Shown piece by piece: positions 743 through 49,460 of a stretch of 64,000 bases of DNA. Source of the stretch: Sulfolobales archaeon (GTDB lineage Archaea > Thermoproteota > Thermoprotei_A > Sulfolobales > NBVN01); NCBI GenBank assembly GCA_038831135.1, contig JAWBKW010000002.1, forward strand, positions 27,214-91,213, written 5' to 3'. The position numbers and the translations under genes were made by a program. How positions within the stretch are numbered: the stretch's first letter is position 1; each line of letters begins with the position of its first letter. The notes below the pieces were generated by a model. That model was given only the letters and a program-made list of their open reading frames with translations, had not been told where the DNA came from and did no database searches.

Positions 743-1318
743 ATGTCTGTAATACCATCATCAGACGAGATTAAGAGGATGAGGTTAGCTGTTGGATTAA
801 CACAGAAAGAATTAGCTAAATTAGCTGGTGTGAGTCAATCACTAATAGCTAGAATTGAGAAGGGGAGTGTAAATCCACGAATGAATACATTGAGGAGAAT
901 CTTAGATGCTATCAATAAAACGGCAAAAACCAATGAAAATGTTGAAAAAATTATGACCACACCAGTAATATCTGTTTATGTGGATACCCCCCTATCGCAA
1001 GTAATAGATATTATGGATGCCAGAGGTATATCGCAAGTACCCGTACTAGATAAGAGTAATAGAATTGTTGGTATGATATATGAATCAACATTATTGAAGG
1101 TTCTGAAATCGAAGAAAGATCTAAGGAAGTTAATAGCTCTTGATGTTATTGAACCTCCCCCACCACAAATACCTAAAGAGACTCCAATATCATTAGTTGA
1201 GTCACTACTACTAATTTACCCTGCTATATTAATTGTAGATAAAGATGGTGTTAAAGGGATAACAACTAAAATAGATTTAATAAAATATTATATAAAATCA
1301 TCAAACATTAGTACGTAA
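743..1318 (+). CDS. transcriptional regulator, XRE-type HTH fused to a CBS domain pair
   Basis: N-terminal HTH (LTQKELAKLAGVSQSLIARIEKG) is followed by CBS-like segments (VISVYVDTPLSQVIDIMDARGISQVPVLD ... GITTKIDLIKY). Confidence 0.75.
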   Translation: MSVIPSSDEIKRMRLAVGLTQKELAKLAGVSQSLIARIEKGSVNPRMNTLRRILDAINKTAKTNENVEKIMTTPVISVYVDTPLSQVIDIMDARGISQVPVLDKSNRIVGMIYESTLLKVLKSKKDLRKLIALDVIEPPPPQIPKETPISLVESLLLIYPAILIVDKDGVKGITTKIDLIKYYIKSSNIST

Positions 1319-1379
1319 ACATAGATTATTCATTAAATCATTGTTAACATTTATTGTTAGTAGTGGGATATAAATCCTA

Positions 1380-1401
1380 CTCCAAAAGAAATAAAGGGGT
1401 C
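1380..1401 (+). repeat. ORB-like box a: CTCCAAAAGAAATAAAGGGGTC
   Basis: Read directly from the sequence. A TAGTGGGAT box (1361-1369) lies 10 nt upstream. Confidence 0.6.
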
Positions 1402-1466
1402 ATCATATTTCTAAAAATCTAGGCCTTCGTATAATTAGGTATATTATCTAAGTTATGGTTGGGAAG

Positions 1467-1488
1467 GACCCCTTAACTTCTTATGGAA
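1467..1488 (-). repeat. ORB-like box b (minus strand): TTCCATAAGAAGTTAAGGGGTC
   Basis: Reverse complement of gaccccttaacttcttatggaa. Same 5-3-5-2-6 spacing as boxes a, c and d. Confidence 0.6.
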
Positions 1489-1614
1489 AGTAAAGATAAA
1501 AACAGATAAATATTATGGTTAGCTTTCTGGAAAAGTTTGTATAATTATCTCTAAATTAATAATTATCATCATCTCAATATATAACCCAAGATATAGGAAA
1601 TCTTCATCATATCA

Positions 1615-1636
1615 CTCCAAATGAAATGTAGGGGTA
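1615..1636 (+). repeat. ORB-like box c: CTCCAAATGAAATGTAGGGGTA
   Basis: Read directly from the sequence. Inverted relative to box b across the AT-rich spacer. Confidence 0.6.
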
Positions 1637-1715
1637 CCTGTGTAGTTAACATTAATAAATACCTAACTCCATACCTTGATCTAGTGATTACTTAGTTTAG
1701 TGGGATTAAAGTGGG

Positions 1716-1737
1716 TTACATATGAAATAGAGGGGTT
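1716..1737 (+). repeat. ORB-like box d: TTACATATGAAATAGAGGGGTT
   Basis: Read directly from the sequence. A second TAGTGGGAT box (1698-1706) lies 9 nt upstream. Confidence 0.55.
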
Positions 1738-1784
1738 TAAATCATTATACCCGTTATAATTATTCTGATTATATTATTCATCTC

Positions 1785-4000: not shown

Positions 4001-4326
4001 GGTCCGGAGCCGGCTGGTGGTTACGGGGTGTAATCCCTGAGGAAACTCCGTCCTCCTCACGGCACCGGGACCTCGTAAGAGGTGCGGGGAGACCCGCGGC
4101 AACGGCACAGAAACGACACGCCCCACATCAAATGTCTATGATATGGTGAGGGTTAAGTAGTAATACTTGACCAGTAACCCATTGAGTATGATGTGGGGTG
4201 CGTTGAAACGGCCGACCCCCGGGGAGTAAGGCCAAGCAGTGTCTATGAATGCCGTGTGAGGCACGGGTAGGCCGCTAAGCCTAATCCACCTTAATACAGA
4301 AGACGGGTTATAGCCGGCACCGGACC
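4001..4326 (+). ncRNA. rnpB: RNase P RNA
   Basis: GC-rich island. The termini pair (ggtccggagccggc / gccggcaccggacc). CR-I-like gaggaaactccg, acggcacagaaacg and CR-V-like acagaagacgggttata are present. An internal AT-rich extended hairpin is closed by ccccacatca/tgatgtgggg. Confidence 0.8.
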
Positions 4327-4337
4327 AAATCCACTCT

Positions 4338-4568
4338 TTATTTAAGAATTATCCTGTTTCCCTTAATCTCTGCAGAACCCTCTAAAACTTCGCAAATCAA
4401 CATAATAGTTCCACTAGTATAAGATTTAACAACTTTAATCCCGGATACCGCTTTCAATATCTCCAATAATTTACCGCTTTCAAATTCTATACGATTCAAT
4501 AATTTACCATAATTATCATAGATATTTAATTCAACGTCATTATTAATAAACGCTATACATGTTGGCAC
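4338..4568 (-). CDS. hypothetical protein (76 aa)
   Basis: ORF only. No motif recognised. Confidence 0.35.
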   Translation of the reverse strand: MPTCIAFINNDVELNIYDNYGKLLNRIEFESGKLLEILKAVSGIKVVKSYTSGTIMLICEVLEGSAEIKGNRIILK

Positions 4569-4683
4569 GTCTAATACACCTAATCCTATAACACCATCAA
4601 TATATATAAACTCACTACTAATTTAATCTAGGTGTACAGTAGTAGTGGATACGTTCGTAAGTCACGGGTGTATGTAATGGGTA

Positions 4684-5013
4684 GTGAAGTCCAAGATCCT
4701 ATCAAAACATATGGTTATTATTTTATCCAATGGTGATATGTTGACTAAATACAGAAACTATAGAAACGTATATAATGTTGATGTGAAGCGTTTCAGTATA
4801 TACAACAACAACAGCATTAGTAAGGGGGAAATAAACGTAGGTGATGAGATAGATGTAATAGTGAGGGAGATGGATGAAAGTGGTAGGGGTGTAGGATTCT
4901 ACAGGGATTATAAAGTTTTAATACCTAAGGGATTCATAAACGAGAAGGTTAGGGTTAGGATCGTCAGGATCACTAATGAGGGACTTCAAGGTGTTATAGT
5001 TCATAGATACTAA
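4684..5013 (+). CDS. TRAM domain protein
   Basis: The C-terminal 65 aa (VGDEIDVIVREMDESGRGVGFYRDYKVLIPKGFINEKVRVRIVRI) fit a TRAM/OB fold. The true start may be an internal Met. Confidence 0.6.
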   Translation: MKSKILSKHMVIILSNGDMLTKYRNYRNVYNVDVKRFSIYNNNSISKGEINVGDEIDVIVREMDESGRGVGFYRDYKVLIPKGFINEKVRVRIVRITNEGLQGVIVHRY

Positions 5014-5037
5014 TTTTCTTAGTTAATTCATAAATTT

Positions 5038-5338
5038 AGCCTCACGTGGCTGTTTCGGGCTTCATAAAGGTTTACAAGGTTTGATGTAGGACGGTTTATC
5101 GTGGGTTGAGCCTGCCCGCAATGTAGGTAGGTGGTGAAGAACTGCGTGAGTAGGGCATCCAACACCAGGATGTGGGGGTTTCCCCGCAGTGATGAGCTCA
5201 ATGAAGGGGAGCTACGGGTTGGGGTTACCCCGAATGGGTGGGGGCCAATAACATGGGCGCCGATGAAAGGTGCCTCGAGATCTGTGAAGCCAAGGATTGA
5301 CAACAAACTACATCAACCAACATGGAACCCAAACCCCT
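5038..5338 (+). ncRNA. GC-rich structured RNA, unclassified (SRP/7S RNA is the leading guess)
   Basis: Roughly 300-nt GC-rich island in an AT-rich background, open in frames on both strands (track ORFs 5028-5306 and 5131-5340). A long-range helix pairs 5078-5089 with 5308-5318. Several local hairpins contain G-U pairs that work only on the + strand (ggcgcc/ggtgcc, cctgc/gtagg). I could not find the canonical SRP helix-8 motif. Confidence 0.45.
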
Positions 5339-5442
5339 GATCTTACACATTTATGTGAGTCTTAAATACGTAGGAATTATTTTTAATTGGGGTAGCAATT
5401 AAAAATAAGTTTTAGGAATTATGATTAAATAGGTATAAGTAA

Positions 5443-6441
5443 ATGTCTAATCAAGCACTCATAGAATTATTGTGGGTCGAGAAATATAGACCGAAGACCC
5501 TATCTGAAATCGTTAATCATGAAGATATTATTAAAAGATTGCAACAGTTTATTAAAGAGAAGAACATGCCTCACCTCCTCTTTGCAGGACCTCCAGGCAC
5601 AGGAAAGACTACGGCAGCACATGCGTTTGCTCATGACCTTTACGGATCTGATTACAGGATGTATATGTTGGAGCTTAATGCCTCTGACGAACGCGGTATC
5701 GATATCATTAGGGGTAAGGTTAAGGAGTTTTCTAGGAGTAAATTACCTACCAACATACCCTTCAAGATAGTATTACTTGATGAGTCAGATAATATGACTG
5801 CGGATGCTCAGCAAGCACTTAGGAGGCTTATGGAAATGTATGTTGATGTAACTCGTTTTATCTTAATAGCTAATTACCCGAGTAAAATCATAGAACCTAT
5901 CCAGTCTAGGTGTGCTGTATTTAGATTCATACCCCTTAGGAAGGAGGATGTGGTTAAGAGGTTGAAATGGATCTGTATGAATGAGGGTATTAGATGTGAT
6001 GAGGAGGGTTTGGAAGTTATTCATGAGATCTCCGAAGGTGATATGAGGAAAGCCATAAACATCCTACAAGCATCAGCTAGCATAGGCGATGTTAACGTAT
6101 CAAACGTACTTAAAGTGGTTGGGCTAGCTCATCCGAGAGAGATTAGGGAGATGATACAATTAGCTTTAGAAGGTAAGTTTATTGAGGCTAGAGATAAACT
6201 TCGTGAACTTATGATTTCTTACGGCATCTCAGGAACCGATATAGTTAAGCAAGTCCATAAAGAGATATTCGGATCAGAGTTAACTATACCTGAACCTCTA
6301 AGAGTTGAAATTGCTGACTACCTAGGTGAGATACAGTTCAGATTAGTTGAAGGTGCTGATGAGGAGATTCAGTTAAATACGTTGATCGCTAAGTTAGTCT
6401 TACTTGGGAGGGCAGCTAAGAGTATTAAGCCTATGAAGTAA
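5443..6441 (+). CDS. rfcS: replication factor C small subunit
   Basis: 332 aa. WVEKYRP box, Walker A GPPGTGKTT, DEAD-like LLDESD and SRC motif (IQSRCAVFRF). Confidence 0.95.
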   Translation: MSNQALIELLWVEKYRPKTLSEIVNHEDIIKRLQQFIKEKNMPHLLFAGPPGTGKTTAAHAFAHDLYGSDYRMYMLELNASDERGIDIIRGKVKEFSRSKLPTNIPFKIVLLDESDNMTADAQQALRRLMEMYVDVTRFILIANYPSKIIEPIQSRCAVFRFIPLRKEDVVKRLKWICMNEGIRCDEEGLEVIHEISEGDMRKAINILQASASIGDVNVSNVLKVVGLAHPREIREMIQLALEGKFIEARDKLRELMISYGISGTDIVKQVHKEIFGSELTIPEPLRVEIADYLGEIQFRLVEGADEEIQLNTLIAKLVLLGRAAKSIKPMK

Positions 6442-7859: not shown

Positions 7860-8132
7860 TTAGTTGTTAAGTTCTCCGTTAAGGGTCCTTAACATTTCAT
7901 CTATATACCTCACACGTGGATTGACCCAATTAGGTCTGTAGATCTTAACCCTACCTAAGACGATCTCTTCGATAATATTACACGATTTTAAGTAATTAAT
8001 ATGTTTAGTAACTAATGTATAGTTAAGTCCCGTCTCTCTTATTATGGATGTTATGTTGATCTCACCATGAAGTAGGATAACTTTAAGTACCTTAACTCTA
8101 CCCTTGCTTGAGAATATATCTTCAAAACTCAT
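7860..8132 (-). CDS. small winged-helix (ArsR-like) DNA-binding protein
   Basis: 90 aa. RVKVLKVILLHGEINITSIIRETGLNYTLVTKHINYLKSCNIIEE fits a wHTH. Its start overlaps the orc1/cdc6 stop by 1 nt, so the two are likely co-transcribed. Confidence 0.55.
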   Translation of the reverse strand: MSFEDIFSSKGRVKVLKVILLHGEINITSIIRETGLNYTLVTKHINYLKSCNIIEEIVLGRVKIYRPNWVNPRVRYIDEMLRTLNGELNN

Positions 8133-9385
8133 TAACCGCCACTACCTTCATAGGCTATCTTAACCTTAAGTAGCTCATCAACTTTAGACTTAATAATGTT
8201 TAGAGGTATTAGGCTTATAGATATGTACGTACTTCTTCCTTTCCTACCTTTCAGTGATGTTGAAGATATTAGAATTCCTAACTTCTTTAAATTTACTATA
8301 TATTCATAAAGCTTTGTATGTTTCCTAGGTTCGACGCCGTACTCCTCACATAACTTATTATATATTTCTTCAACTATGCCAGTATTTACGTAAGGATCTC
8401 CACTCTCCATCAGTGCAGTTACTACGGCCTTTAATGTAAGTAATTCATGGAAACTTAGGTATGGTAGAGCATCATTCAGCATCACCGTGTTAGGTTCAAC
8501 TATCGAGCAGGCCTTCCTAACATGATCTAGTGAAATAGTCATAACACCTTCTCTCTCAGCTATTTCACCAGCTATTAAGAGTATTTCAAGAGCGGCCCTA
8601 GCGTTTCCGGGGCCACCTTTATCACTACCTATAGTATCTGATATATACTTCAGTACATCATCAGAAACCGCCCCTTCAAATATTGATTCATCAGCTCTAA
8701 ACTTAAGTATGTCGTATAACTCGCGTGATGTATAGGGATTAAACATCACTAGGTTCTTCATTAGGTACGATTCCGTCGTTGGATCTAGCATCGATAGTGA
8801 GGTAGCGGACTTGCTTATGAATATGAAGTTCAACCTCTTGACTTTATCTGGGAACTCATCATAAACCCTGATCAAGAAGTAGATGGCATCGCTTCCGGCA
8901 ACATTAATGAAATAATCGAACTCATCTAATGCAAGTATTACGTACAAGTTCTCACTATCTATTAAGTCTAACATATAATTAAGGACTTCTCTAACAGATA
9001 AGCCTCTTTGAGGTACTGGAAGTCTTAACTGTCTTACAGCCTCATTTACTACTTCAAATAATGTACGGTCCCTATGACAATTTACATGGACGTAACTTAT
9101 GTTTAAACCTCTTCTCTTAGCTATTTGTGTGAACTCCTTACCAAATATTCTTGCGGTGACGGTTTTACCAGTACCTATACCACCCACAATCATAGCTTTA
9201 TGGCTTATGCTTCCAGGCGTTAGAAGCATAGGTTTAAATATATTTGTCAATGTTTTCAGTTCGTTTTCCCTATGCGGGAGTGAGTTAGGTAGATATTCCG
9301 GATATAATTTCTCCTTACTTTTAAATAATGACGCCCTATTCAATTCACTTTCAATTATGTTACGAATATCACTCAATAATTTCAC
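8132..9385 (-). CDS. cdc6: Orc1/Cdc6 replication initiator
   Basis: 417 aa. LPHRENE motif, Walker A GGIGTGKTV, Walker B LDEFD and a C-terminal winged helix. Confidence 0.95.
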   Translation of the reverse strand: MKLLSDIRNIIESELNRASLFKSKEKLYPEYLPNSLPHRENELKTLTNIFKPMLLTPGSISHKAMIVGGIGTGKTVTARIFGKEFTQIAKRRGLNISYVHVNCHRDRTLFEVVNEAVRQLRLPVPQRGLSVREVLNYMLDLIDSENLYVILALDEFDYFINVAGSDAIYFLIRVYDEFPDKVKRLNFIFISKSATSLSMLDPTTESYLMKNLVMFNPYTSRELYDILKFRADESIFEGAVSDDVLKYISDTIGSDKGGPGNARAALEILLIAGEIAEREGVMTISLDHVRKACSIVEPNTVMLNDALPYLSFHELLTLKAVVTALMESGDPYVNTGIVEEIYNKLCEEYGVEPRKHTKLYEYIVNLKKLGILISSTSLKGRKGRSTYISISLIPLNIIKSKVDELLKVKIAYEGSGG

Positions 9386-28646: not shown

Positions 28647-28745
28647 TTTAAACCCCTTAAAAGAAGAACTAACTCTACCATTTTATTTTAATATAAAAAA
28701 TAATGTATTTAGTGTTTGACTAGTACTTAAAGATTACTTAGTATC

Positions 28746-28928
28746 TTAGGCTGGGTATTCGTCTGGAACTTTAGCTCTGAAATACTTACCTGATTCAGGG
28801 CTCTTGAAGAGACCTATTTTAACCCCTTTCCTACCCTTAGGTGCTAAAGTCCATACCTTCTCAGGTACTAGTGATACTTCTTTACCGGTTGTAGGGTCTT
28901 TCACCTTTATAGATGACTTCTTTGACAT
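28746..28928 (-). CDS. cren7: chromatin protein Cren7
   Basis: 60 aa. [40 protein letters not shown] is near-identical in pattern to Sulfolobus Cren7. Confidence 0.9.
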
Positions 28929-29180
28929 GGTCTATATCACCATGATAGTAATGGCTAATCATTGTTTAAAAGTTACGTAGGACCTTTAAAATATGATGAT
29001 TATCATAAATAAAAAATTACTTCAAATATTTTAAAGGATTATTTTAATATTAAATTCATTAAATAGTCTTTAACTCATTTAATAATAATGAAAATTTTAA
29101 CTGAATGATTAAAATACTCAAGGAATTTAAACAAAGGTAATACATAATAATCGCGAACTCCATAAACTTCTACACTACGT

Positions 29181-29228
29181 TCAGAACCCAGCTACTAATC
29201 ACTGCTCATAGCTTTTAACCGTCATCAT
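29181..29228 (-). ncRNA. candidate C/D box sRNA (second, weaker)
   Basis: Minus-strand parse: C ATGATGA, 12-nt cggttaaaagct, D' ATGA, linker gca, C' GTGATTA, 11-nt gtagctgggtt, D CTGA. Confidence 0.4.
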
Positions 29229-29283
29229 CAATTTGAATTTTTTATTAATGGTTATAACTATTAATCAAGGCCTTAATGAATTT

Positions 29284-29333
29284 TCAGACAAATGCCTTAA
29301 CATCATTAACTCAGTTCCGGAGGTACTCATCAC
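29284..29333 (-). ncRNA. candidate C/D box sRNA
   Basis: Minus-strand parse: C GTGATGA, 12-nt gtacctccggaa, D' CTGA, linker gtta, C' ATGATGT, 12-nt taaggcatttgt, D CTGA. This is the textbook 50-nt archaeal architecture. Confidence 0.6.
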
Positions 29334-29435
29334 CTTACCTAGTCAATTATTAAATATGTTCATTTAATTAATATTTTATTTTAATTTATAGAAAGAATAA
29401 CTCAATATTATGCATAATGTTAGGTAAGTAACTCT

Positions 29436-42888: not shown

Positions 42889-42978
42889 GCCGGGGTGGCC
42901 GAGCGGCCTAAGGCGGCGGGCTGCAGTGATCGTTAGAAACCCGTTAATTCGCGGGTTCGAATCCCGCCCCCGGCTCCA
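42889..42978 (+). tRNA. tRNA-Cys (GCA) with 12-nt canonical (37/38) intron, CCA encoded
   Basis: Acceptor GCCGGGG/CCCCGGC, discriminator T (the Cys identity element), anticodon stem GCGGG/CCCGT. The loop is CTGCAG[tgatcgttagaa]A. T-arm GCGGGTTCGAATCCCGC. Confidence 0.8.

Positions 42979-49363: not shown

Positions 49364-49460
<97 letters not shown>

Follow-up and report, generated by a model that had tools for sequence, protein, structure and literature searches.

A predicted oriC1-type replication origin next to tiaS in an uncultured archaeon of the Sulfolobales

Here, we present a computational analysis of a candidate chromosomal replication origin in a non-coding gap next to tiaS in an uncultured Sulfolobales archaeon, which is represented by a metagenome-assembled genome (MAG; GenBank assembly GCA_038831135.1, contig JAWBKW010000002.1, positions 27,214 to 91,213). 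We refer to the whole 64-kb stretch that was analysed as the window, and coordinates are positions in it; L001-L008, L061, and L081-L089 are labels of comparison loci. The analysis followed up a preliminary description of the window, in which four boxes resembling origin recognition boxes (ORBs) had been noted in the gap and were suggested to form an origin.

Results

The gap is located between a gene encoding a protein with HTH_3 and CBS domains (HTH-CBS) and tiaS, which encodes tRNA-Ile2 agmatidine synthetase. These two genes are convergent and both terminate at the gap, so that the gap requires no promoter; its length of 466 bp without coding sequence is therefore conspicuous. The features of the locus are listed below (PWM, position weight matrix; DUE, duplex-unwinding element).

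743..1318, plus strand: HTH_3 + CBS gene (Pfam), left flank, 3' end towards the predicted origin
1319-1784: non-coding gap of 466 bp between the HTH-CBS gene and tiaS
1363..1380, no strand: accessory palindrome GTGGG-N8-CCTAC (CCCAC in relatives), including the first TAGTGGGAT
1380-1401, plus strand: ORB a, outer left, CTCCAAAAGAAATAAAGGGGTC, PWM 31.1 bits, predicted Orc1-1 site
1425..1435, minus strand: weak ucm-like site in the interval from ORB a to ORB b, ATTATACGAAG, two mismatches to ucm
1467-1488, minus strand: ORB b, inner left, TTCCATAAGAAGTTAAGGGGTC, PWM 30.0 bits, TCCA end towards the DUE
1489..1614: AT-rich spacer of 126 bp, 77% AT, predicted DUE
1535..1545, minus strand: ucm, ATTATACAAAC (GTTTGTATAAT on the plus strand), predicted UBP binding site
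1615-1636, plus strand: ORB c, inner right, CTCCAAATGAAATGTAGGGGTA, PWM 29.8 bits, TCCA end towards the DUE
1700..1715, plus strand: accessory direct repeat GTGGG-N6-GTGGG, 11-bp period, including the second TAGTGGGAT
1716-1737, plus strand: ORB d, outer right, TTACATATGAAATAGAGGGGTT, PWM 27.9 bits
1785..3119, minus strand: tiaS (Pfam), right flank, 3' end towards the predicted origin

Direct re-reading of the sequence gave coordinates, strands, and sequences of boxes a-d exactly as in the preliminary description. The boxes are 21-22 nt long and share T2, C4, A5, A7, GAA9-11, T13, and AGGGGT16-21, and the earlier claim that GAA, T13, and AGGGGT are invariant in all four was borne out. When up to two mismatches to the degenerate pattern were allowed, only boxes a-d matched in the 64 kb (0.05 matches expected; 0 of 100 shuffles reached four), and at a permissive threshold of 13 bits, the PWM matched the same four sites and nothing else in the window. 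Compared with ORB2 of Sulfolobus islandicus oriC1, boxes a-d are identical at 14-19 of 22 positions. We predict that these boxes are origin recognition boxes bound by Orc1-1. As described previously, boxes b and c are inverted around an AT-rich stretch; this spacer is among the top 0.4% of 126-bp windows for AT content.

Inside the spacer between boxes b and c, we found an exact copy of the 11-bp ucm ATTATACAAAC, which had been overlooked in the preliminary description and is the sole exact copy in the 64 kb. The 11-mer was defined by comparing the oligo UCM30TOP with its mutated control (PMC12141716). Formerly the "uncharacterized motif," ucm was assigned a binder in 2025, i.e., UBP, an abundant nucleoid protein that also contacts MCM (Dhanaraju et al. 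2025, PMC12141716). The weaker site at 1425-1435 forms a direct repeat with the ucm region, and based on the alignment with relatives, only its TAATTAT core is partly conserved; its assignment as a second ucm-like site is uncertain.

The nearest TiaS relatives of the window are ~70% identical, and all of them are from uncultured organisms. The close set comprises seven lineages (loci L081-L088) with TiaS identities of 72-57%, while the more distant loci are among the matches listed in a TiaS profile search of genome contigs. In each of the seven close lineages, tiaS and the HTH-CBS gene form a convergent pair separated by a gap of 400-590 bp. The gap contains four ORB-like boxes that are oriented as in the window, and ucm lies between the inverted ORBs, either as an exact match or with one mismatch. 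In the alignment of these gaps, the feature columns are 78% identical (73-82% for ORBs, ucm, and accessory elements) vs 34% in the other 334 columns. The 132 feature columns include 72 of the 80 columns that are invariant (Mann-Whitney P = 2e-32). The spacer sequence, ucm excepted, is not conserved in this alignment.

The PWM was trained on 28 boxes from the close lineages and used to scan 1.46 Mb in 89 sequences. Matches of at least 23 bits were confined to gaps downstream of tiaS and to displaced clusters in L004 and L061. In seven loci not used for training (L001, L002, L003, L005, L006, L007, and L008), which have TiaS identities of 60-39% and include an Ignisphaera MAG, two to four ORBs are located right after the tiaS stop codon. 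Exact copies of ucm are present in L001, L002, L007, and L008 and also in the displaced cluster of L061. The PWM scan found no ORB in the loci from Bathyarchaeia, Nitrososphaeria, and Asgard archaea. Altogether, at least 14 lineages have an ORB cluster immediately after the tiaS stop codon. The boxes of distant lineages approach the classic form CTCCACAGGAAGTAGAGGGGT, and the homologue of box d begins with CTCCAGATGAAAC in L085, L086, and L001 and with CTCCAAATGAAAT in L088. Based on these comparisons, the predicted module of four boxes and ucm is conserved at a syntenic chromosomal position, and tiaS is a conserved positional marker for the putative origin. The HTH-CBS gene neighbours it in L081-L088, L001, and L005, while MazG is found instead in L002-L004.

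The two displaced clusters, both from more distant lineages, differ in their surroundings. In L004 (positions 1-900), the ORB/ucm cluster is located 4.2 kb upstream of tiaS, beside MazG. In L061 (4500-5100), an ABC-transporter pair is located between tiaS and the ORB/ucm cluster, which has a CBS-only gene on its far side. These two loci show local rearrangements around the origin.

In most close relatives, an HTH_3-CBS regulator gene directly adjoins the gap, and we considered that the boxes might be transcription-factor operators, e.g., for HTH-CBS, and not part of an origin. However, with both flanking genes terminating at the gap, there is no promoter to regulate; moreover, the boxes persist in L002-L004, where MazG replaces HTH-CBS, and they match the validated Orc1-1 site at up to 19 of 22 positions and accompany ucm. 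The related idea that the gap contains an unannotated small RNA or peptide gene can point to a called open reading frame (ORF) of 60 aa in the gap of one relative and to weak hairpin-type Rfam matches. Yet the identity of only ~34% outside the boxes among relatives argues against a conserved ORF or RNA, and the Rfam matches reached 27 bits vs gathering thresholds of 55-62, concern plastid families, and arise because boxes a and b form an inverted repeat. Whether gathering or E-value thresholds were applied, the Rfam scans of the gap gave nothing credible, and an Rfam RNA family was rejected on these grounds. In our view, operators or a small gene are very improbable explanations of the boxes.

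A further possibility is that the origin is part of an extrachromosomal element that has integrated, i.e., a plasmid or virus, and is not an ancestral chromosomal origin. The flanking genes have core housekeeping functions (tiaS, the POR operon, RNase P RNA, RFC, and Nop5), the synteny is shared across deeply diverged lineages, and there is no integrase or other mobile-element gene nearby; we consider an integrated element exceedingly improbable.

The outer boxes carry accessory elements. The preliminary description had placed a shared box, TAGTGGGAT, at 1361-1369 and 1698-1706. While these positions are correct, our analysis does not support that TAGTGGGAT is a stand-alone box, because it is a fragment of larger conserved elements; the occurrence of two copies in the 64 kb is not significant in itself (13 of 100 shuffles). 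The palindrome at 1363-1380 abuts the TCCA end of ORB a with a 1-nt overlap, and the seven close lineages share invariant bases at 9 of its 17 columns. In the 1.46 Mb of related loci, GTGGG-N8-CCCAC occurs at that position only, in L001-L003 and L081-L088. Similarly, the direct repeat at 1700-1715 abuts the TCCA end of ORB d and has 10 of 16 columns invariant; every close lineage, as well as L002 and L007, has CCAC-N6-CCCAC at the ORB d position, and ~6 chance matches occur elsewhere in the 1.46 Mb. At both positions, the GTGGG/CCCAC cores are invariant in the seven lineages. The inner boxes b and c have no accessory elements. Literature searches by sequence string for the ORB and CCCAC motifs returned nothing useful.

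One half of the classic ORB dyad, GTGGA/TCCAC, is similar to the GTGGG/CCCAC pentamers, and we speculate that the accessory elements may be extra contacts for the Orc1 winged helix. More generally, it is a tentative suggestion that they are sites of a further, unnamed origin factor, of extra Orc1 protomers, or of Orc1-2. HTH-CBS was considered as the binder of the accessory motifs and rejected; there is no synteny support, and in L002-L004, where MazG is the neighbour, the motifs persist.

The preliminary description had also drawn attention to an orc1/cdc6 gene in the window and proposed its product as the protein to be tested for binding to the boxes. This gene and its close neighbour are as follows.

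7860-8132, minus strand: gene for a 90-aa winged-helix protein with weak HTH_45/TrmB/HTH_5 matches, overlapping the orc1-2 stop codon
8132..9385, minus strand: gene for an Orc1-2/ORC2-type Orc1/Cdc6 paralog, 6.35 kb from the gap

The existence of the gene and its distance of ~6.4 kb stand, while its product is not the likely binder. In comparisons with PDB, its product scored 188 bits against P. aerophilum Cdc6 (1FNN) and 182 bits against Aeropyrum pernix ORC2/Orc1-2 (1W5S), followed by S. solfataricus (Sso) Orc1-1 (159 bits), A. pernix ORC1 (153 bits), and Sso Orc1-3 (71 bits). It aligns end to end with Orc2 of Aeropyrum camini at 32% identity. The pair of orc1-2 and a gene for an 86- to 90-aa winged-helix protein is present in all relatives and in A. 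camini, the small proteins of the window and of Aeropyrum are homologous (local score of 199, ~45% identity), and the pair looks like a conserved two-gene unit. Based on the scores, the alignment with the A. camini protein, and the shared small downstream gene, we conclude that 8132-9385 encodes an Orc1-2 ortholog, and the initiator acting at this origin is probably another protein. In A. pernix, Cdc6-2 did not bind oriC1 (review, PMC5333045), and deletion of orc1-2 in S. islandicus affected no origin (PMC3607249).

The cdc6-2/whiP region of S. islandicus contains oriC3, in which ORB-like "nORB" sites are accompanied by ucm (PMC3718332), and S. solfataricus Cdc6-2 binds origins in vitro (PMC5333045). 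Together with the presence of the orc1-2 gene 6.4 kb away, these observations could be taken to support that the locus is an origin with another initiator, either of the WhiP-type and oriC3-like or governed by Orc1-2. However, the boxes match the ORB2 sequence of oriC1 and not a divergent type, the window contains no second Orc1 gene, with no search aimed at a WhiP-like gene, and orc1-2 does not stay linked to the origin: L088 lacks the RFC/orc1-2 block in the vicinity of the origin, and at the orc1-2 locus of A. camini (L089), tiaS, ORBs, and ucm are all missing from the surrounding 10 kb. The locus could also be a dormant or relic origin, and dormant origins exist in haloarchaea; a relic is difficult to reconcile with the strong purifying selection on the four boxes and ucm across at least 14 lineages. 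We regard another initiator, or a dormant or relic state, as unlikely.

A candidate for a WhiP-like initiator was a gene for a 354-aa protein ~4 kb from the origin in some relatives, which was rejected; its product has a tandem Lrp-like HTH, and the gene is absent in L002 and L003. In L082 (15942-17006, minus strand), this protein has no Pfam match above threshold; it contains two regions of weak winged-helix similarity and weakly matches LrpA (1I1G). Homologues of the gene are present in L083, L086-L088, and L001 and are located outside the window.

Further features were observed in the window and in the comparison loci. At 28647-29435, there are 789 bp without long ORFs, with an AT content of up to 87% (28988-29113); this is the least stable DNA of the window. 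It includes a short minus-strand ORF at ~28745-28930, which, by eye only, we take to be Cren7-like, and the AT-rich part near this ORF is probably a promoter region. The 28.6-29.4 kb region was rejected as a second origin because it contains no ORB or ucm. An archaeal RNase P RNA (4005-4322, plus strand; 227 bits) is located between a Tsr3-like gene and RFC and is followed by ~1 kb (4338-5340) with only short ORFs (76-109 aa) and no Pfam family; relatives have ORFs of 63-95 aa at matching positions, a correspondence for which only sizes were compared. The gene for the RFC small subunit is intein-free in the window (5443-6441) and in L081-L083 (332 aa), while it contains an intein (596 aa, Intein_splicing) in two lineages (L085, 6305-8095; L086/L087, 6304-8094). 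Finally, two tRNA matches are unusually long, at 94 nt (49367-49460, minus strand) and 87 nt (42889-42975, plus strand), possibly owing to an intron or a long variable arm.

Discussion

Our analyses support that positions 1363-1737 of the window are a crenarchaeal oriC1-type, Orc1-1-dependent chromosomal replication origin, and we estimate the probability of this interpretation at roughly 0.86. The proposal in the preliminary description of an origin with ORBs and a DUE is supported by the match to ORB2 at 19 of 22 positions, the polarity of the boxes, the presence of ucm, and the layout that is kept in relatives. By homology with oriC1 of S. islandicus, S. solfataricus, and A. pernix, we infer that an Orc1-1 ortholog, whose gene would lie outside the window, would bind as a monomer to each ORB with a fixed polarity, such that the winged helix would contact TCCA..GAA and the AAA+ domain's ISM (initiator-specific motif) would contact GGGGT. 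In its ATP-bound form, Orc1-1 would bring MCM to the AT-rich spacer, MCM would leave the origin with the help of a UBP homolog on ucm, and bidirectional synthesis would begin at a spacer/ORB junction.

Several observations weigh against this interpretation. The TCCA core of ORB d is degenerate (TACA), and the spacer, although AT-rich, is neither the most AT-rich nor the least stable DNA of the window. No second Orc1 paralog was found in the 64-kb window, and the expected cognate Orc1-1 ortholog would consequently be encoded elsewhere in the genome. GC and AT skew over the window follow gene strand, and the locus is located 1.3 kb from the edge of the window, giving no usable inflection. Aeropyrum gave no match when TiaS was searched for from an "Acidilobales" seed protein, and direct orthology to A. 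pernix oriC1 is conjectural. Finally, with the organism being an uncultured MAG, the support is wholly computational.

The preliminary description had remarked that the origin is not adjacent to the orc1/cdc6 gene. This is correct but no anomaly, because the same holds for A. pernix (PMC5333045). In most archaea, the cognate initiator gene typically adjoins the origin, although not in all. The cognate orc1-1 is not adjacent to the predicted origin here, nor is it adjacent to the validated origins of A. pernix; because the latter are also unlinked to cdc6, adjacency of orc1-1 does not define this family of origins. In the relatives, there is no Orc1 gene within 10 kb on the other side of the origin.

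For an uncultured lineage of the Sulfolobales/Desulfurococcales type, the analysis provides an origin annotation that is precise and can be tested; for at least 14 related lineages, it provides a rule for finding the origin, i.e., four ORBs and ucm downstream of tiaS. The ucm/UBP element, so far known from Sulfolobales and Aeropyrum, would thereby have a wider range. Moreover, the analysis suggests that the lack of linkage between origin and orc1-1, as in A. pernix, is widespread in the group and that tiaS is the anchor of oriC1 in a broad clade of uncultured organisms. The accessory motifs could mark an additional origin-binding factor; if so, they would represent a new cis-element of crenarchaeal origins with a history comparable to that of ucm. 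The current picture of archaeal replication initiation is unchanged by these results.

Among the mapped origins, oriC2 and oriC3 of Sulfolobus resemble the locus described here in that a ucm-bearing AT-rich region is flanked by initiator sites. However, oriC2 has short mORBs (GATTTTCAGATGAAACG) and C3 sites beside orc1-3, while full-length ORBs like those of oriC1 are present here; the Orc1 protein of the window scores 71 bits against Sso Orc1-3 vs 182-188 bits against Orc1-2-type proteins. oriC3 is WhiP-dependent and without classic ORBs, while classic ORBs are present here. Its type, which also takes in A. pernix oriC2, has a whiP (Cdt1-like) gene beside the origin; the genes flanking the gap here are HTH-CBS and tiaS.

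A. pernix oriC1 has four 22-bp ORBs paired around an AT-rich region and with a CTCCACAGGAAACGGAGGGGT-like sequence, and the boxes of L006 and L007 (CTCCACAGGAAGTAGAGGGGT) presumably resemble this ORB closely. The A. pernix origin is bound by ORC1/Orc1-1 and was confirmed by 2D gels and marker frequency. As in the case of the predicted origin, the host is of the Desulfurococcales type and neither of the cdc6 genes is located beside an origin (PMC5333045); also, ucm is reported to be conserved in both A. pernix origins (PMC12141716).

The most detailed comparison is to S. islandicus oriC1, in which mutation of ORB2, ORB3, or ucm each abolishes the marker-frequency peak; the linker-scan mutants that do not fire are M12 and M13 (ORB2), M1 and M2 (ORB3), and M6 and M7 (ucm) (Dhanaraju et al. 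2025, PMC12141716). As the reference for ORB3-DUE-ORB2, we used oligo P23 of the same study, which consists of ACCCCTTCGGTTCCATTGGAGA, 93 bp of 78% AT with ucm, and then ORB2 CTCCAAATGAAATACTGGGGTA (PMC12141716). Box c is identical to this ORB2 at 19 of 22 positions and box a at 18 of 22, and ORB2 and box c share the 13 bases CTCCAAATGAAAT, covering the segments that were replaced in M12 and M13. The polarity is the same in both origins, ACCCC..TGGA-[DUE]-TCCA..GGGGT, with the TCCA ends facing the spacer and the GGGGT ends facing away from it, and box b has the polarity of ORB3. The spacers are similar in composition and size (93 bp and 78% AT in S. islandicus, 126 bp and 77% AT here), ucm is located inside both, and additional ORB(s) are located outside the inverted pair in Sulfolobus oriC1 as well as here. 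The origins differ in that Sulfolobus oriC1 has three ORBs and an adjacent orc1-1, while there are four ORBs and no orc1-1 in the window here, and in that the outer ORBs here have GTGGG/CCCAC elements, with the Sulfolobus side of this comparison limited to ORB2 and ORB3. Altogether, we conclude that the locus is a further member of the origin type already known from Sulfolobus and Aeropyrum.

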